Part shown: piece by piece, positions 2,781-57,725 of the stretch
Numbering within the stretch: position 1 is the first letter of the stretch
Layout of the letters: the number at the start of each line of letters is the position of its first letter
IMG/VR virus record: IMGVR_UViG_3300032103_000073
Reading direction: 5' to 3' (one strand)
Length of the DNA stretch: 64,000 bases
From: a virus
Taxonomy: Duplodnaviria > Heunggongvirae > Uroviricota > Caudoviricetes
Made by a program: the position numbers and the translations under genes
The notes under the pieces: generated by a model
Database searches by the model: none
Told to the model about the DNA's origin: nothing
What the model saw: only the letters and a program-made list of their open reading frames with translations

Positions 2781-3218
2781 ATGAACGCACTTACACGATT
2801 TGACACTACAGCTCTTAACCAATTAAACAGAGCACTGGTTGGATTTGATCGCATGTTTAATGAACGAATCAATTCTAACCAATCTTACCCTCCCTACAAC
2901 ATCATCAAGAAAGATGACAACAACTATGAAATTGAAATCGCAGTTGCTGGCTTTACACTTGGAGAAATTGATGTTGAAGTGAATCAAAACATGCTAACAA
3001 TTTCCGGACAGCGTGATAGAGAAGAAGAAGAAGCAGATGTAGAATATCTACACCGCGGTCTTGCTTATCGTAGCTTTGAAAAGACACTAACTCTTGCAGA
3101 GCATATGGAAGTTGGAACTGCAAGTATTAAAGATGGCGTTCTACGAATTGCTATTACTAGGATCGTTCCTGAAGCACTAAAGCCCCGCAAGGTTGAAGTT
3201 ATCAGCTACGACAAGTAA
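2781..3218 (+). CDS. small heat-shock protein (Hsp20/alpha-crystallin family)
   Basis: alpha-crystallin-like core (IAVAGF...L.I); SD AAAGGAG before ATG 2781 (track ORF begins at 2736). Confidence 0.75.
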   Translation: MNALTRFDTTALNQLNRALVGFDRMFNERINSNQSYPPYNIIKKDDNNYEIEIAVAGFTLGEIDVEVNQNMLTISGQRDREEEEADVEYLHRGLAYRSFEKTLTLAEHMEVGTASIKDGVLRIAITRIVPEALKPRKVEVISYDK

Positions 3219-5269: not shown

Positions 5270-5271
5270 AT

Positions 5272-5300
5272 TGGCACAAATTGGTTTTGGCGCTATAATA
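5272..5300 (+). promoter_or_regulatory. conserved early promoter plus UTR cassette
   Basis: TTGGCA-N17-TATAAT followed by ACATACATAGCGTAACAAAACAGGAG and ATG 5332. Confidence 0.75.
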
Positions 5301-17854: not shown

Positions 17855-18028
17855 ATGACAGTAGTAGGTCGTAAAAAAGTCAGTGATGTGTTAAACTGGC
17901 TCAATGAGAAAAAGTTTAAATATACTATCAATACCTTGTTATCAAATTCACTTCACGGCGTTTATTATTTAGAAATGAAAAACAGCGAAGAAGAACTTCT
18001 AACACGACTTACTTGGGGAATCACATGA
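17855..18028 (+). CDS. MF-x-LRWS-motif family small protein (57 aa, not in the track)
   Basis: C-terminus ..EELLTRLTWGIT. Confidence 0.45.
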   Translation: MTVVGRKKVSDVLNWLNEKKFKYTINTLLSNSLHGVYYLEMKNSEEELLTRLTWGIT

Positions 18029-18783
18029 AAAAACTTTTAATAGCTCTTTTGCTCTTGCCTGCACTATCATGGGCTACTGCCAGCTATGGGGTATTTGATT
18101 TTGCCTCAGTAGAATACCAACACAGCAAGAACACAGACGAAGTTCGTAGCATTGCTAGCATTACAAAACTATTCACCGCGCAAACAGTATTAGACAGCGG
18201 CGTTGATTTAAGAGAATTGGTTCAAGTTAGGGGTAAAGCTACAGGCAGATTTGCCCGGGGCACTTTAATATCTCGTTATGAACTACTTCGCGCCATGTTG
18301 ATGAGCAGCGACAACTTGGCGGCAGAAACGCTAGCTCATGCCCATCCTGGTGGTTTTGAACGGTTTATACAAGACGTCAATACACGAGTCGGCGATATGG
18401 CACTTAAGAATACTGTAATTGTAGACAGCACTGGTTTACTACCTGGCAATAAAAGTACAGTTGACGACCTTCGTGATTTCTTGTTCACTTTACGTAAATA
18501 TATGTTGATACAGGCGTTAAGCGTAGAGAAAACTTATAGCACAGAATACCGCAGAGGTGCAAAGATAGTTAAAGTAAATTTAAAAAACACCAACCCGCAG
18601 ATGTGGTCATATGATAATATTGTTCTCACTAAAACGGGATTTACTAATCCAGCAGGTCGGTGTTTGGCTATGCTAGTTGAAAAAGATGGCGGTTTGTTTG
18701 CTGTGGTTAGTCTAGGGAATTTATCGGTGCAAGAACGATCGAAGAATATCGCCAACTTAATGAATGAAATAGGTAGTAAGTAA
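18025..18783 (+). CDS. secreted D-alanyl-D-alanine endopeptidase/PBP-like serine hydrolase
   Basis: signal peptide MKKLLIALLLLPALSWA; SxxK (SITK), SxN (SSDN) and KTG motifs. Confidence 0.65.
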   Translation: MKKLLIALLLLPALSWATASYGVFDFASVEYQHSKNTDEVRSIASITKLFTAQTVLDSGVDLRELVQVRGKATGRFARGTLISRYELLRAMLMSSDNLAAETLAHAHPGGFERFIQDVNTRVGDMALKNTVIVDSTGLLPGNKSTVDDLRDFLFTLRKYMLIQALSVEKTYSTEYRRGAKIVKVNLKNTNPQMWSYDNIVLTKTGFTNPAGRCLAMLVEKDGGLFAVVSLGNLSVQERSKNIANLMNEIGSK

Positions 18784-20146: not shown

Positions 20147-20175
20147 TTGGCACAAATTGGTTTTGGTGCTATAAT
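20147..20175 (+). promoter_or_regulatory. conserved early promoter plus UTR cassette
   Basis: TTGGCA-N17-TATAAT and the UTR before ATG 20208. Confidence 0.75.
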
Positions 20176-31621: not shown

Positions 31622-32419
31622 ATGAAAAGCGTTTTTAAATTTGGTTTTGTTGTTGCCGCAGTTGCTCTGGCTACTGGTTGTACTCGTATCGAGACTGGTG
31701 AAGTTGGCGTACGGGTTGGGTTTGATAAACAGGTTAAACCGGGTGAACTCGAGCCAGGTAGTTTCAATCAGGTATTGATTGGTGATGTGCTGACTTTCCC
31801 TTACAAGGATGTTAACGTGGTTCTAGAGAATATGACCCCAGTGGCTAAAGACAACAGCACTATGAAAGATTTAGATGCTGTAGTTGTTTATAACCTCAAT
31901 AAGAATCAAGCAGCAGAACTGTATAGTTCTAAGAACCGCAGCTTCCACGCAGAGTTTAAAGGCGATACTTACTTAATGTATAACTACATCGTCCAAAATG
32001 CTCGTAATGCTATCTACAAAGCGGCACGAAAGCATGAAGCCTTGGACATGGCAGACAATCGTGATGCTATGGAAAACTTTATCAAGGAAGAAATCACTCG
32101 GAATCTTGCTGAGGAAAAACTGGATGGTGCTATCACTATTAGCCAGGTCATGATTCGTAACGTAACTCCTGCTGACAGTGTTGTTCAGAGTGCTAACGAA
32201 TTGGTTCGTAGTAAGAACGAACTCAAGCAAAAAGAAATTGAAGTTAAGACTGCCGAAGCAGAAGCACGTCGAATGGCTGCTCTAGCTAACAACAGCTCTA
32301 GCTCGATTGCTTTTATGAATGCCCAAGCTGCTCTTAATATCTCTGAAGGTATCAAGAACGGCAAGGTGCAGACTATTGTTGTTCCTAGCAACATGACCAG
32401 CTTGATGCTGCCTAAGTAA
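31622..32419 (+). CDS. SPFH/Band-7-like lipoprotein
   Basis: lipobox ATGC; TGEVGVRVGFDK prohibitin-like start; coiled-coil C-terminus. Confidence 0.5.
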   Translation: MKSVFKFGFVVAAVALATGCTRIETGEVGVRVGFDKQVKPGELEPGSFNQVLIGDVLTFPYKDVNVVLENMTPVAKDNSTMKDLDAVVVYNLNKNQAAELYSSKNRSFHAEFKGDTYLMYNYIVQNARNAIYKAARKHEALDMADNRDAMENFIKEEITRNLAEEKLDGAITISQVMIRNVTPADSVVQSANELVRSKNELKQKEIEVKTAEAEARRMAALANNSSSSIAFMNAQAALNISEGIKNGKVQTIVVPSNMTSLMLPK

Positions 32420-37810: not shown

Positions 37811-37850
37811 ACAAAAACAAAAACCCGCATAATGCGGGTTTTTGTTTTAT
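37811..37850. terminator. bidirectional rho-independent terminator
   Basis: A-run, cccgcataatgcggg stem, T-run. Confidence 0.8.
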
Positions 37851-38725
37851 CCATTATAGTTAAACGTCGAACGAACTAAAACACGCTCTCTTAATATATT
37901 AGGGTCGTCTTGATCTCGTTTGTGTATGGTCAAGATTTGATCCATCAGAATAATATCACCGGGCTCCCATGGGTGCGAATAGATAAACTTATCCTGAAGA
38001 CAGTGTTCTTTTAAATCTTCTAACAAGCATGGATCTTGCGGAAATGAGCACTTGTTATGAAAGTGAAAATATAATCCTTTTTTTCCTCTAAAGCTATCGT
38101 TGATCAACGGCATTTGATAAGGAACTTTATTTTTTGCCATAGCGTTATATTGATCTGCTGGTAATCCTTCTGCCCATATTTCGGGAGCATACTCAAAATT
38201 GCCCACTATGCCCTGGCAACGCTCTTTGAGGTCTGCAGGCATAGCTTCGTAAGCTAGTGTAGTATCCATGAAACTAGTGCTGGTCCCCTTAATGCCTTCG
38301 CTTACACCCTGCAAGGCAACACCGTTAGCCCTACCCGGTCCGTTGTAGTTGCTATGCCAGTCTAGTGTGCCGGTTCCGAATATACCACTGCGTTTGCCAT
38401 TTTTTATTTGTCCGGTTACTCGCTGCACAGGATACAGATCATCTATGCCTTCATAATTAAATGGATCGATAACTTCTTTGGCTTTGTTAAACAAGACATT
38501 ACCGTGAATGTCCCACGTGCATTGGTCCCAGTTAGCAACATTGCCTTGACCCATGCGATAAATTAGTTTCATATAAGGAACGGTTAGCCTGGGTTGATTT
38601 TTAAATACAACAACTAAATCGCGCAGCAGTGACTCTTTAATATCTACATAATCTTGTTCTGTTAGTTCTCGTATGTCGCAGTCGGAAATTTCTACGGCAC
38701 AATTGTTTAATGGTGTAATCTTCAT
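37847..38725 (-). CDS. TauD/TfdA-like Fe(II)/alpha-ketoglutarate dioxygenase (putative)
   Basis: WEPGDIILMDQILTIHKR C-terminal motif; 292 aa. Confidence 0.45.
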   Translation of the reverse strand: MKITPLNNCAVEISDCDIRELTEQDYVDIKESLLRDLVVVFKNQPRLTVPYMKLIYRMGQGNVANWDQCTWDIHGNVLFNKAKEVIDPFNYEGIDDLYPVQRVTGQIKNGKRSGIFGTGTLDWHSNYNGPGRANGVALQGVSEGIKGTSTSFMDTTLAYEAMPADLKERCQGIVGNFEYAPEIWAEGLPADQYNAMAKNKVPYQMPLINDSFRGKKGLYFHFHNKCSFPQDPCLLEDLKEHCLQDKFIYSHPWEPGDIILMDQILTIHKRDQDDPNILRERVLVRSTFNYNG

Positions 38726-38779: not shown

Positions 38780-39568
38780 ATGTCATATTCTAAAATCATA
38801 ACAAACAAACTAGCTTCTAATACAGAATTTTTACCTTACATTCAATTGGCAGCAACTGCACTGGTTGCAGCATTTGTTATATTTTATCCCCAGTCTCATG
38901 CAGGATGGCTAACAGCAGTTCTTATGTATGCGGCGATTGGCTGTTTTGGCATTAGCATTGGTTATCATAGACTACTAACGCATAAGAGTTTTAAGACTAC
39001 AAAATTTTGGGAATATTTTTGTGCCTTGTGGGGAACATTGGCATTTACTGGCAGTGCGATAGGTTGGGTAGGCATGCACAGAGACCATCACAAATACAGC
39101 GACAAGCCGGGTGACCCGCATAGTCCAGTAGTTCGCAGCTGGCGCATGCTAGTAGCAGCTTACGATTATGCCCCGGATAAATGGAAGATTCGCCATTTAA
39201 TCTTTGATAAATTTCACGTCTTTATTCACACTTGGTATTTTGGTTTATTGTTAGCATGGACAGCTTTTTGGTTTTCACTTGGTGGAATAGCATTAGCTAT
39301 GTATGTGGTTATTATCCCTGCGGTAATTAGCGTTTGGGTTAGCACTACTAGCAACTATATGAACCACAAATGGGGATATAGGAATTTTGAAACAACAGAT
39401 AACAGCCGCAACCTTTGGTTTAATGCAGTCTTTACATTTGGAGAAGGATGGCATAACAACCATCACGCTCGCCCGGGTAATTATGACTTTGGATCTGGTA
39501 CTAGTGGCAAGTGGTGGGAATTTGATCCCGGTGCTAGAATTATAGAATTGATACGATCTTGCAAATAA
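38780..39568 (+). CDS. membrane fatty-acid desaturase/hydroxylase family protein
   Basis: three His boxes HRLLTH, HRDHH and HNNHH; four TM helices. Confidence 0.7.
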   Translation: MSYSKIITNKLASNTEFLPYIQLAATALVAAFVIFYPQSHAGWLTAVLMYAAIGCFGISIGYHRLLTHKSFKTTKFWEYFCALWGTLAFTGSAIGWVGMHRDHHKYSDKPGDPHSPVVRSWRMLVAAYDYAPDKWKIRHLIFDKFHVFIHTWYFGLLLAWTAFWFSLGGIALAMYVVIIPAVISVWVSTTSNYMNHKWGYRNFETTDNSRNLWFNAVFTFGEGWHNNHHARPGNYDFGSGTSGKWWEFDPGARIIELIRSCK

Positions 39569-41269: not shown

Positions 41270-42196
41270 ATGAACAAAACATTTTTAACACTACTGGGAT
41301 CTCTAATGATTTCCACTTCTCTTTTTGCAAAAGAAAAGATTTCGATTTATTTTCCATATGCAGCCAGCGCAAGTCCGACACCTAGCGTCATACGTATGGT
41401 AGATGAAGCAAATAACTTGCAAGAAAAATATAATTTCCAACTGGTATTTAAACCAGGTGGCAATCAGGGTATTGCAGTGAATTCGATGGATCGAGAACCT
41501 AACAACTCGTTGTCTGTTATTGCGCCTGCTTATGTAGAAAATTACAAAACTAACATGTTTGACAAAAACAATCACGTACCGATATGGTCGATGGGTAATG
41601 CTTGTTGGTTGGTTATTTCTAATTTAGGAGACGAAAAAACAGGATTATCAAGTTTAAAACACGAAAAAGAAATAAATGTCGGCGGGGTCGGCTTTGGTAA
41701 TGCTACACACCTGACTGCACTTGCGTTGGGAGAGAAATATAACATAAAAATAAATTATATTGTTTTCAAATCAAACACAGATGCTCTGATGAATATGGTC
41801 GGAAAAAACGGTATTAACATGGTTATAGATAAAGCAGATAACTATATTAATTTTAAAGAAAAAGGTAATCTTCGTGCATTAGCAGTGAGCTGCAATAAAA
41901 AAATAGGGAAATTGAATTTCGTTAAAACATTAGAAGAACAAAAAATAACAGCGCCTTCAGTTTTTAATATTATTATTGCAAACAAAAATATGCCGATAGA
42001 CTTGCAGCAAGACATCAAGTCTATTTTACAAAAAAGTGCAGAAAACATTGGACAAGATTTTTTCTTAGAACATAGTGGTTTTAGACCTAGTCAATTTGAT
42101 AAAATATCAGAAGACATGTTTTACAACAAATCGTTGCTTTTGTTAGAAGAATTGCTTGCAAAGCATAAATATGCTATAGAACTAAGTAAAAAATAA
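41270..42196 (+). CDS. secreted periplasmic solute-binding-like protein
   Basis: signal peptide plus about 290-aa mature domain. Confidence 0.35.
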   Translation: MNKTFLTLLGSLMISTSLFAKEKISIYFPYAASASPTPSVIRMVDEANNLQEKYNFQLVFKPGGNQGIAVNSMDREPNNSLSVIAPAYVENYKTNMFDKNNHVPIWSMGNACWLVISNLGDEKTGLSSLKHEKEINVGGVGFGNATHLTALALGEKYNIKINYIVFKSNTDALMNMVGKNGINMVIDKADNYINFKEKGNLRALAVSCNKKIGKLNFVKTLEEQKITAPSVFNIIIANKNMPIDLQQDIKSILQKSAENIGQDFFLEHSGFRPSQFDKISEDMFYNKSLLLLEELLAKHKYAIELSKK

Positions 42197-45225: not shown

Positions 45226-45855
45226 ATGAACTATATAATTTACAAGACTACAAATCTGCTAAACGGTATGTACTACATTGGTTCTCATCAAACCAATGAC
45301 TTAAATGACGGATACTTAGGTTCGGGTAAACATTTAAAAAGAGCCATTACTAAGTACGGCAGAGAAAATTTTAAATTTGAAATTCTTTACTTTCTTCCCT
45401 CAAAAGAGGAAATGTTTAAAGTAGAACGAGAAATCGTAAATGAATCTTTTGTGCAAGATCCGCTAACGTATAATTTAAAAATCGGTGGTAGCGGAGGGAA
45501 TCCTGGTATTATCGGAGCTTTTTCTGGAAGAAGGCATACCGAAGAAACTAGAGAAAAAATGAGAGTTTCGAGGTCGAAACAAGCGCCCATGTCAGAAACA
45601 AGTAGACAAAAACTTTCAGAAAATAACTGGTCTAAAAGAGATCCCGGCGCGCATAGAGAACACATGCGTAAGATAGCATCTATGCCACGGTCGGAAGAAC
45701 ATAACAAAAAAGTCGCCGAAGCAAACATAGGCAAAACAATAGTTAATAATGGTATTATTGCTAAAAGAATAGATAAGAAAGATTTGAGCTACTATGAAGA
45801 TAGTGTTGGAAAAGAGGCGCAATGCCTCGTAAGAAATAATATGCCCTTAAGATAA
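45226..45855 (+). CDS. GIY-YIG homing endonuclease (Seg-like)
   Basis: IIYKTTNLLNGMYYIGSH...KRAITKYG GIY-YIG module plus basic C-terminal DNA-binding region. Confidence 0.75.
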   Translation: MNYIIYKTTNLLNGMYYIGSHQTNDLNDGYLGSGKHLKRAITKYGRENFKFEILYFLPSKEEMFKVEREIVNESFVQDPLTYNLKIGGSGGNPGIIGAFSGRRHTEETREKMRVSRSKQAPMSETSRQKLSENNWSKRDPGAHREHMRKIASMPRSEEHNKKVAEANIGKTIVNNGIIAKRIDKKDLSYYEDSVGKEAQCLVRNNMPLR

Positions 45856-45915
45856 CGGCAGTCGTCAGGTCTCCAAAACCTTGAAGTCGCGGTTCGAATC
45901 CGTGAGGGTATGCCA
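45841..45915 (+). tRNA. tRNA-Trp (CCA)
   Basis: acceptor ATGCCCT/AGGGTAT; loop CTCCAAA; overlaps the last 15 nt of the endonuclease ORF. Confidence 0.65.
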
Positions 45916-47764: not shown

Positions 47765-47839
47765 CTCGCTGTAGTTCAATGGATAGAACAGTTCTCTCCT
47801 AAAGAATAGATCCAAGAATCGAACTTGGTGGCGAGACCA
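47765..47839 (+). tRNA. tRNA-Arg (CCT)
   Basis: loop CTCCTAA; unusual T-loop AATCGAA. Confidence 0.6.
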
Positions 47840-48139: not shown

Positions 48140-48346
48140 CAAGTTAAGAAATTAACTGTTTTGATAGATGTTGTTGGGAGCGATCCCCCACAACAGAGAT
48201 GTAAGGTCCTCAACTGCGAGGCGTTAGCAACATTTATCATCTTGTTCTTTAAAAATTTGCAGTGTTGTTTAGGCTGATTGACGGCAATCGAAAAGCAGTC
48301 TGAGTCTTGTCCCCGGCGCACCGCTTTGCCGAGCGTACCGCAGGGA
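48140..48346 (+). other. structured leader A (candidate small RNA), homologous to leader B
   Basis: shared 5' box AGAT(A/G)(C/T)AAGTTAAG(A/C)AATTAACT and a GGGA(A)GCGATC hairpin. Confidence 0.4.
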
Positions 48347-48420
48347 GTCTCTATAGTGTAAGGGTAGCACGCCAGCTTGTAAGAGTTGGAGGATTGGGTT
48401 CGAATCCCAATAGAGTTTAA
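48347..48420 (+). tRNA. tRNA-Gln-scaffold paralog with an 8-nt anticodon loop (TTGTAAGA); no CCA
   Basis: D-arm and T-arm nearly identical to the tRNA-Gln at 45012; stem CCAGC/GTTGG encloses 8 nt. Confidence 0.4.
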
Positions 48421-55218: not shown

Positions 55219-55280
55219 ATTAAATATTTACCAAAATTTAGTAGGTAAGCGTCAATAAATATCAACACAAGGAGAATACC

Positions 55281-55952
55281 ATGAAACGTATCATCGAAAT
55301 CAGAGCCGCCGAGGGCGGAGAAGATAGTAAACTATTTGTTAAAGATTTGGCACAAGCATATATTAAGTTCGCACAAAGCAAGGGCTGAGCTACCCGCCTG
55401 ATAGGTGAGTATCAAGGCGAACTTCATATTGAAGTCCAGGGTACTGATTTATCCGGCTTGTATAACGAAAGCGGAGGACATCGCATACAGCGAATTCCGC
55501 CCACAGAACGAAAAGGCCGAGTGCATACCAGCACAGTCACAGTTGCCATCGTAGATCCCGCAGAAGTTGCTTTAGAATTAAAGGACTCTGATTTACGAAT
55601 AGAATGGTACAGTGGTACAGGCGCCGGCGGGCAGCACAGGAACAAGCACCAAAACTCGTGCCGCATTACACACATTCCTTCTGGCATAGTTGCAACAGCA
55701 CAATGTCGCTCAAGGGAAAACAGTTTAGCGGAAGCACGAAGCGCGATTGTTGCCCGTGTAAACGAACAAGTTAAAAAACAGTTTACAGATGGGCTAGCAC
55801 AAAATAGGCGTGAGCAAGTGGGCTCTGGCATGCGAGGAGACAAAATTCGCACTTACAGATTCCAAGACGACAGGGTGCAGGACCATGTAACAAGCAAAAC
55901 AGCCAGTACTAAAAAAGTATTACAAGGCAACTTTGACTTGCTGTGGGCTTAA
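55281..55952 (+). CDS. RF1-like peptide chain release factor (domains 2-4) interrupted by an in-frame TGA at 55386-55388
   Basis: strong SD; GGQ motif SGTGAGGQHRNK; PxT-type tripeptide (PPT); ESGGHRIQRIP; a single reading frame across the TGA. Confidence 0.65.
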
Positions 55953-55953
55953 A

Positions 55954-55982
55954 TTGGCACAAATTGGCTTTGGTGCTATAAT
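55954..55982 (+). promoter_or_regulatory. conserved early promoter plus UTR cassette
   Basis: before ATG 56015. Confidence 0.75.
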
Positions 55983-56885: not shown

Positions 56886-56914
56886 TTGGCACAAATTGGT
56901 TTTGGTGCTATAAT
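56886..56914 (+). promoter_or_regulatory. conserved early promoter
   Basis: before ATG 56946. Confidence 0.7.
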
Positions 56915-57161: not shown

Positions 57162-57725
57162 ATGCCCTGGATACAAAATGTCAGCATGAGCGATGTCAAG
57201 CGCGGCTTGCATTTCGAGGCCGGCGAAAATAGCATGCTGATTCAGATTGTTGACCCAGCATATGAGTTTCCTGCACCGTTGAAGCAGTTTAAAGAAGTTC
57301 ATCAGTTTGAATTTCTCGATGTAGAAGCAACTGACTTGGAGTTTGCAGAGTTTGCCTGCACACAAGAGCAAGCAGACCGCTTGGTGGAACTGCTAACTCA
57401 TGCTATGGACAAACGCATGAACGTTCTCGTGCATTGCCATGCAGGTGTTTGCCGCAGTGGTGCAGTCTGCGAAGTAGGTGTTATGATGGGATTTAGCGAC
57501 ACAGAAGTGTTTCGCAGTCCTAACCTGCTGGTCAAGCACTTAATGATGAAGCGACTTGGATGGACCTATGATGCCGATGAAAAGCATAGCACAAACGGCT
57601 ATACTACTCCCAGCGGCATTATTGTTCCCAAGCAAGAATTAGATTGGACAAACGATAACGAAAAGGTGTTTACACTGGCTGATGCCCGGCGCAAGTATCG
57701 TTTTAACACCGGAGAAGATGTATGA
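57162..57725 (+). CDS. protein tyrosine/dual-specificity phosphatase
   Basis: CX5R P-loop VHCHAGVCRSG. Confidence 0.65.
   Translation: MPWIQNVSMSDVKRGLHFEAGENSMLIQIVDPAYEFPAPLKQFKEVHQFEFLDVEATDLEFAEFACTQEQADRLVELLTHAMDKRMNVLVHCHAGVCRSGAVCEVGVMMGFSDTEVFRSPNLLVKHLMMKRLGWTYDADEKHSTNGYTTPSGIIVPKQELDWTNDNEKVFTLADARRKYRFNTGEDV

Follow-up and report, generated by a model that had tools for sequence, protein, structure and literature searches.

Can a gene for a release factor carry a stop codon inside its own reading frame and still give a full-length protein? The question is raised by a locus in the virus record IMGVR_UViG_3300032103_000073 (Caudoviricetes), of which a stretch of 64,000 nucleotides, here called the window, was analysed. 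In it, an open reading frame (ORF) at 55281-55952 on the plus strand encodes an RF1-like release factor and is interrupted by a TGA at 55386-55388, which is codon 36. A sequence-only reading of this DNA had offered three explanations: that UGA is read as Trp by programmed readthrough, perhaps with the help of a phage tRNA-Trp(CCA); that the phage recodes TGA in some of its genes; or that a fresh nonsense mutation has left a pseudogene. The first is now favoured, given a UGA that is fixed among relatives, a constrained spacer and hairpin that follow it, and a phage tRNA-Trp that is unpaired at 27:43. In our best reading, which we hold to be probable, programmed UGA-to-Trp readthrough would link the output of the phage RF1-like factor to the activity of host RF2.

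The ORF begins with an ATG at 55281 and runs for 223 codons to a terminal TAA at 55950-55952. A Shine-Dalgarno (SD)-like AAGGAG can be read in the sequence at 55269-55274 (+), 6 nt 5′ of the ATG, and a TAG at 55242-55244, 12 codons 5′ of the ATG, shuts the frame upstream, so that there is no N-terminal extension. The TGA is the sole interruption, as had been claimed: the frame stays 0 across it, and a downstream frameshift or second stop, which the sequence-only reading had named as evidence that would tell against recoding, was not found before the TAA. Codons 1-35 (55281-55385, +) encode a strand and then a helix, include the EIRAAEGGEDSKLF segment of the codon-recognition domain and carry a GGxE segment, and the in-frame UGA, the putative recoding site, follows directly (55386-55388, +). 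Codons 37-223 with the TAA (55389-55952, +) encode the remainder of domain 2/4, with the PPT motif at 55497-55505, and domain 3, with the GGQ motif at 55626-55634 (residues 116-118). These motifs, the SD and the segment ESGGHRIQRIP had been picked out before, and all are present.

Scored with codon 36 read as Trp, the product matches the Pfam families PCRF (85.7 bits, profile positions 103-194 of 194 only) and RF-1 (72.1 bits), and the comparison with RF1, RF2 and PrfH models that had been proposed, made with NCBIfam, ranks prfA (205 bits) above prfB (122) and prfH (49). Each of these scores lies under its cutoff because the first ~105 residues, which form domain 1, are missing; thus the RF1 equivalog model (TIGR00019 / NF001859) gives 205 bits against a cutoff of 400 and is covered over positions 107-333 of 347. 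No domain-1-like ORF was found elsewhere in the window. Using phmmer against the Protein Data Bank (PDB), codon 36 aligned with the Trp of Thermotoga maritima RF1 (KGWNLEV) and of Escherichia coli RF1 (RRWRVEI), which bears out the view that the TGA stands at a conserved RF1 Trp. In the same comparison Q70, P73-P74-T75 and H82-T83 aligned with the residues of RF1 that read the stop codon, and RIQRIPPTE..GRVHTS of the window protein with RVQRVPATE..GRIHTS of E. coli RF1. Judged from these alignments, the window protein has the RF1-type codon-recognition determinants and should not read UGA. An AlphaFold (AF2) model built for a database homologue 84% identical to the window protein, with a predicted local distance difference test (pLDDT) score of 82, places residues 1-35 within domain 2, as a strand (2-11) and a helix (14-33), and its top structural matches are ribosome-bound RF1 (template modelling score, TM, 0.72-0.76). 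We therefore interpret 55281-55952 as a single gene, predicted to encode a 223-residue RF1-type class-I release factor without domain 1.

The UGA is a fixed feature of this family. A pattern scan of IMG/VR with motifs distant from the TGA gave 376 relatives, and in all of the best 80, which were retained and share 67-86% amino acid identity, codon 36 is TGA and the frame is otherwise intact. Over 71 distinct genes, codon 36 is TGA in every one, and each of two other invariant Trp codons is TGG in every one. The exact 21-nt context GGYTGARCTACCCGCCTGATA (TGA) occurs 52 times in IMG/VR and 108 times in metagenome contigs, and the identical context with TGG was found in neither collection (0 and 0); relatives with TGG at this codon, which the sequence-only reading had regarded as pointing to a simple pseudogene, thus did not appear in these scans. 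Both flanks of the UGA evolve as protein, with amino acids conserved and purifying selection on either side. An in-frame stop that is fixed in diverged relatives, with coding constraint on both of its sides, is what characterises programmed readthrough, and it is what is found here. At the DNA level the locus matched none of 50,697 phage records and tblastn reached 41% identity at best, and therefore no cultured relative is at hand. One metagenome contig of 3.9 kb (L209) holds two copies of the TGA context, at 1042-1062 and 3013-3033, 2 kb apart, suggesting that the gene has undergone tandem duplication.

Database records of these genes are of two kinds. Proteins that show W at position 36 come from short contigs (P0001, P0024 and similar proteins, and loci L081 and L083, are examples), and in two that were checked the underlying DNA is TGA, which points to gene calls made under code 4. 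Longer contigs carry shortened calls of 164-186 residues, a range that becomes 141-186 with a RefSeq case described below. It may be that the release-factor gene alone can bias a short metagenomic contig to the wrong genetic-code assignment.

A scan of one genome per bacterial species also revealed copies without domain 1, 46-53% identical, in which the corresponding codon is likewise TGA. Those in cultured Alphaproteobacteria are located on large chromosomal contigs and come from Thalassospira xianhensis, Gemmobacter caeni, Jiella, Pararhizobium and Rhodovibrio sodomensis (locus labels L124/L151 for T. xianhensis, L125 for G. caeni, and L126, L127 and L136), and several metagenome-assembled genomes (MAGs) also hold UGA-interrupted copies that lack domain 1. 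The RefSeq entry for the Thalassospira gene is a 141-residue 'release factor-like protein' that comprises the C-terminal ORF only. The neighbourhoods of the bacterial copies show no consistent partner gene; that of Thalassospira is an island of hypothetical genes including AbiEii genes, and the Gemmobacter copy lies directly upstream of a Thg1-like (tRNA 5′-end repair) gene.

The sequence that follows the UGA is constrained beyond its coding function. A 7-nt spacer, GCUACCC (55389-55395, +), in which synonymous sites are almost invariant, separates the UGA from a predicted 62-nt hairpin (55396-55457, +), consisting of a conserved lower helix, 55396-55413 with 55440-55457, and a variable apical part, 55414-55439. 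Normalised synonymous entropy averages 0.73 over the gene and is lowest, at 0.28, in codons 37-45 (permutation p = 0.0014); codons 37-46 and 54-60 together differ from the rest with a Mann-Whitney p = 3e-9, and codons 1-35 show ordinary synonymous variation (0.61-0.78). The hairpin was taken from a single-sequence minimum free energy (MFE) fold and then tested on 66 distinct sequences, over which the lower helix is 88% paired, compared with 26-45% for slid controls; compensatory changes on both sides occur at seven of its pairs, and the observed covariation score was reached by 0 of 500 shuffles. The 85 nt from the TGA onward have a mean folding z of -3.1, with 86% of genes below -2, compared with means of -0.3 to -1.4 for six other windows of the same genes. 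Several bacterial copies, unrelated in sequence here, have a strong hairpin that starts 8-12 nt past the UGA (z -2.9 to -4.0). An Rfam scan of the window returned tRNAs only and no known cis-regulatory RNA. Synonymous constraint, covariation and folding z thus agree in marking a conserved cis-acting RNA signal beside the stop, as is looked for in programmed readthrough. Given a spacer of 7 nt, the helix would lie about at the mRNA entrance while the UGA is in the A site, as in the stimulators of frameshifting and readthrough.

Recoding appears to be confined to this gene within the DNA that was covered. The window is a run of small plus-strand genes around an array of 33 tRNA genes at 37.6-54.4 kb, and 135 greedy ORFs in it end with TAA (75), TGA (49) or TAG (11), with many ATGA stop/start overlaps, which upholds the earlier remark that most genes in the window end normally with TAA or TGA. 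A codon-usage test for coding-like segments joined across a TGA found the release-factor gene only. It was likewise the recurrent TGA-split match in 905 kb of flanks (±10 kb) of related loci; those of the other matches that were read by eye, without systematic filtering, looked like adjacent genes in the same frame with an ATG a few codons past the TGA. No tRNA(UCA) or tRNA-Sec was found in the window by ARAGORN or Rfam, no tRNA(UCA) by ARAGORN in 55 related loci, and no UCA anticodon appears among the 914 tRNA calls made when the program was run again on the window together with the 80 loci. The pattern of a code-4 phage (many in-frame TGAs, a tRNA(UCA) and few TGA stops) is thus not seen in the window and the ±10-kb flanks, and the suggestion that TGA is recoded in other genes of this phage finds no support there. 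Two of the tRNA genes deserve a comment. A tRNA-Arg(CCU) at 47765-47836 (+) was detected by Rfam only and missed by ARAGORN; it is not a suppressor and raises the array to 33. A tRNA-like gene at 48346-48419 (+; Rfam tRNA, 46 bits) has an 8-nt anticodon loop, UUGUAAGA, to which ARAGORN gives the anticodon 'gtaa', and is without a long variable arm, though GUA would be Tyr; to judge by its loop, it could be a quadruplet or frameshift decoder, and similar odd-loop tRNAs are present in related loci L020, L022, L029 and L041.

Other phage lineages have recoding sites in the same type of gene. Huge-phage records and further IMG/VR contigs contain additional PPT-type factors without domain 1, which we have assigned to lineages B and C. 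In lineage B (relatives of LR756502; loci L086, which is LR756502 itself, L091-L095, L098 and L099) an in-frame UGA is conserved at codon ~51 in a UGA-C context, and in three members another UGA lies at codon 39-44, where relatives do not have Trp. Folding is not in excess downstream of the lineage-B UGAs, and the hairpin is therefore not universal to phage release-factor recoding sites. The 49 kb around one lineage-B gene, in a huge phage, have 95% coding coverage under code 11. In lineage C (relatives of LR745208) the sequence CGG AGG GGU CUU UGA is followed by the remaining protein in the +1 frame, which is the cassette of prfB, the RF2 gene; in the alignment the CUU of the cassette falls on W36 of the window family. 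Such cassettes (GGAGGGG UCUU UGA) were seen in GC-rich huge phages at L087 (1570-1612) and near 3103 in L096, L100 and L103. CUU UAG replaces CUU UGA in two lineage-C members (L101 and L102, near 3109) and in a Hahella MAG copy; among 8160 bacterial prfB motifs in a published survey, none has TAG (bioRxiv 10.1101/2024.09.24.614795). The Hahella copy (L130, 3100-3130) has TGG at codon 36 and then, five codons later, CUU UAG C followed by the +1 frame, and as read from the contig it would be either a UAG-based frameshift or an assembly error. Taken together, these sequences indicate that recoding at or near codon 36 recurs in phage RF1-like genes in several mechanistic forms.

How, then, might the window gene be expressed? 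Production of the full-length protein would require that UGA-36 be read as a sense codon in the 0 frame, and the decoder would most likely be a near-cognate tRNA-Trp(CCA), from host or phage, in competition with host RF2. When the UGA occupies the A site, the base of the hairpin would lie at about the ribosomal mRNA entrance, which is the geometry of known recoding stimulators. Since an RF1-type (PxT) factor should not itself read UGA, the stop would act as an RF2-specific gate that reports RF2 activity relative to Trp-tRNA: a shortage of RF2 relative to Trp-tRNA would raise the output of phage factor, and abundant RF2 would lower it. The logic would be that of prfB autoregulation, cross-wired to an RF1-like product and executed by readthrough. 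Such a gate could have arisen by a single TGG-to-TGA change, and the readthrough product would then be the ancestral protein. An indirect feedback is also conceivable, in which the phage factor takes over UAA and so frees RF2 for UGA.

A candidate for the decoder is the phage tRNA-Trp(CCA) at 45841-45915 (+), which has a C27-U43 mismatch and a 4-bp anticodon stem. A 27:43 mismatch is found in 8 of 22 distinct tRNA-Trp genes of related phages as against 91 of 700 other tRNAs (Fisher p = 0.006). No more than ~6.5% of standard-code bacterial genomes are reported to encode only a tRNA-Trp with a 4-bp stem, and the C27A 4-bp-stem version of E. coli tRNA-Trp is reported to raise UGA readthrough ~2.5-fold (Fakih et al., NAR 2026, PMC13092985). 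The phage tRNA-Trp is similarly unpaired at 27:43, whereas that study deals with cellular genomes and with genome-wide reassignment or tolerance, and its text makes no link to a phage or to a single recoded gene. The phage tRNA-Trp may contribute to decoding UGA-36, and the gene would supply a concrete candidate biological use for tRNA-Trp with a 4-bp anticodon stem.

Several observations weigh against this reading. The evidence for it is entirely comparative, and the window is 64 kb of a jumbo-phage genome that is probably much larger. The base 3′ of the UGA is A or G, and leakier contexts are known in E. coli. With regard to the hairpin, RNAalifold on the 66-sequence alignment gave a trivial 3-pair helix only and did not recover it unaided, the three most divergent phage copies adopt another pairing register, and high-GC bacterial copies have no significant folding excess. 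The 27:43 mismatch is present in only 8 of the 22 phage tRNA-Trp genes, and some jumbo relatives have 5-bp versions only. Finally, the lineage-B genes with two UGAs hint that UGA decoding may be more efficient than, or unlike, simple near-cognate leakage, because low-level readthrough would make the products of such genes very poorly.

Among the other explanations, that of a plain throttle accepts that readthrough occurs and supposes that it serves only to hold the factor at ~1% of the level given by its ribosome-binding site (RBS), with no sensing of RF2. All of the evidence for readthrough fits it equally, and too much of a release factor that lacks domain 1 could do harm; however, a weak RBS or promoter would suffice for this without a fixed stop and an RNA element, the prfB cassette, whose known property is RF2-dependent tuning, occupies the same codon in sister lineages, and the stop in the window family is always UGA and never UAA, which would throttle equally. 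We regard a throttle of this kind as unlikely, though worth keeping in mind. It is distinctly unlikely, in our view, that the gene reports a stage-specific change of code, in which UGA becomes Trp genome-wide late in infection (code-4-like) through the unusual tRNA-Trp, an undetected suppressor or the disabling of RF2, and the RF1-like gene is one of many late genes with in-frame TGA, its product keeping up termination at UAA and UAG. The two-UGA genes of lineage B imply efficient decoding, the tRNA-Trp has its 4-bp anticodon stem, and the window, in which 20 ORFs scanned against Pfam are of accessory type, appears to be free of structural or late genes; moreover, the TGA-recoded Jade phages encode an RF1 (bioRxiv 10.1101/2021.08.26.457843). 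Yet that RF1 gene is itself in standard code, and the present data offer no second TGA-split gene in 64 kb, flank matches that, where read by eye, look like adjacent genes, TGA as the terminal codon of 49 of 135 ORFs with many ATGA overlaps, no UCA tRNA among those called in related loci, the same TGA in chromosomal bacterial copies and near-complete coding under code 11 around the lineage-B gene. A related idea, to which we likewise give little credence, is a transient phage 'UGA = Trp' state produced by the 4-bp-stem CCA tRNA-Trp alone, with no UCA suppressor, such that the RF1-like gene and possibly late genes would be translated only then, and the truncated RF1 would take over termination at UAA and UAG while RF2 is out-competed. 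If true, this would be a phage-driven code switch invisible to current suppressor-tRNA screens.

The remaining possibilities are weaker still. A split gene, or termination followed by reinitiation, would yield a 35-residue peptide and a separately started C-terminal fragment, and gene callers do annotate C-terminal fragments of 141-186 residues. Against this, the called starts vary by contig (codons 40, 41, 48, 51 and 60), a search of the relatives for a conserved start codon or SD 3′ of the UGA found none, the first in-frame start past the UGA in the window is a TTG at codon 60, and residues 1-35 contribute a strand, a helix and the GGxE segment to the same domain; we judge it highly improbable. 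The position of the UGA closely 5′ of a hairpin could recall selenocysteine insertion, with the hairpin as a selenocysteine insertion sequence (SECIS). There is, however, very little to be said for this when homologues have Trp and not Cys at the codon-36 site, the variable part of the hairpin is its apex, which in known SECIS elements is the part that binds SelB, the window has no tRNA-Sec, and other lineages place their UGAs, sometimes two, at different, non-conserved positions. An inactive pseudogene, or a sequencing artefact, has in its favour that a single TGG-to-TGA change is the commonest route by which a gene is killed, but it is refuted, and its probability negligible, because hundreds of diverged copies conserve the TGA and the protein to either side of it: 80 of 80 viral loci have the TGA, as do 160 exact-context matches and the bacterial copies, and purifying selection acts on both flanks. 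The idea that A-to-I editing turns UGA into UGI was also set aside. TadA targets have a UACG loop context, which the site is without, and we know of no phage precedent for such editing.

The proposed readthrough has parallels with known systems, of which prfB, with its +1 frameshift at CUU UGA C, is the closest in logic. In both, a release-factor gene is interrupted near its start by an RF2-specific UGA, and synthesis of the whole protein depends, or in the window gene would depend, on RF2 losing a competition, and the sister lineage C provides a complete prfB cassette, with SD-like GGAGGGG and CUU UGA, at the codon homologous to W36. The window gene differs in that its motif is PPT and not SPF, its context is GGC UGA GCU with neither CUU nor SD-like element, and its frame continues in 0, with a downstream hairpin used instead; furthermore, its RF1-type product should not read UGA, so that any feedback would be indirect. 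In phage Qbeta, A1 is a functional C-terminally extended product made when tRNA-Trp reads UGA as Trp at low frequency. The proposed event is likewise UGA read as Trp in a phage gene, whereas the short and long Qbeta products are both functional, the short product here is a 35-residue fragment, and the window UGA lies inside a domain and is accompanied by a conserved RNA hairpin. In retroviral gag-pol (murine leukaemia virus, MuLV), readthrough is stimulated by a pseudoknot ~8 nt past a UAG. The order of stop codon, spacer of ~7-8 nt and stable structure as putative stimulator is the same, but gag-pol involves a eukaryotic ribosome, UAG and a pseudoknot, and the window element is a predicted hairpin. 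By analogy, then, the window gene may be described as prfB-like in logic and Qbeta A1- or gag-pol-like in mechanism, and as a member of none of these.

Two systems are related through the protein itself. Jade phages have an RF1 gene in standard code beside a UCA suppressor tRNA and a tryptophanyl-tRNA synthetase (TrpRS), with in-frame TGA in other genes (Borges et al., bioRxiv 10.1101/2021.08.26.457843). Both cases tie a phage-encoded RF1 to UGA read as Trp, in the present one as a proposal, but in the window the in-frame TGA is restricted to the release-factor gene, and the search for a suppressor tRNA was negative. PrfH (RF-H) also lacks domain 1, has a codon-recognition-like domain and the GGQ motif (PMC6514570), as does the window protein, and it pairs with RtcB. 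The window protein differs in retaining the PxT, Q and HT determinants of RF1; it scores 48.6 bits with TIGR03072 (cutoff 166.65), matching over the GGQ domain only, and the ten largest window ORFs do not include an RtcB.

Release-factor genes with regulatory recoding are already known, and an in-frame UGA in a phage RF1-like gene appears to be new: in the literature on phage stop-codon recoding, huge and jumbo phages, release-factor evolution and prfB frameshifting we found no description of one. Few cases of programmed stop-codon readthrough have, to our knowledge, been confirmed in bacteria or in the DNA phages that infect them. The genes reported here, on hundreds of phage contigs and in chromosomal copies of Alphaproteobacteria, would form a large natural readthrough family with a defined RNA stimulator, and would carry the prfB principle of autoregulation over to RF1-like factors, with an RF2-specific stop controlling an RF1-type protein. 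The same gate may take the form of readthrough, of a +1 frameshift at the homologous codon or of a UAG in place of the UGA in related lineages. There is also a practical consequence, as the checked cases are mis-annotated in two ways, by code-4 calls on short contigs and by a truncated RefSeq protein, and the code-4 calls could bias the inference of genetic codes from metagenomes.

Some further features of the window may be mentioned. A 29-nt repeat, TTGGCACAAATTGG(C/T)TTTGG(T/C)GCTATAAT, occurs four times on the plus strand, at 5271-5299, 20147-20175, 55954-55982 and 56886-56914, where none is expected by chance. It has an 11/12 match to the sigma-70 consensus with a TG ahead of the -10 hexamer and is, on this resemblance, probably a phage promoter; one copy starts 2 nt past the TAA of the release-factor gene. 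Accessory genes of cellular type are situated at 403-1641, 18013-18783, 31622-32419, 37847-38725 (-), 38780-39568, 41270-42196 and 57162-57725, the types being a ClpX-like ATPase, an S11 D-Ala-D-Ala carboxypeptidase, SPFH/Band 7, a TauD-family dioxygenase, a fatty-acid desaturase, a TctC-like receptor and a dual-specificity phosphatase. The ClpX of the window is closest (~55% identity) to those of Sinorhizobium and Agrobacterium jumbo phages, a similarity that is uninformative for placement of the phage and gives a weak hint of an alphaproteobacterial host.

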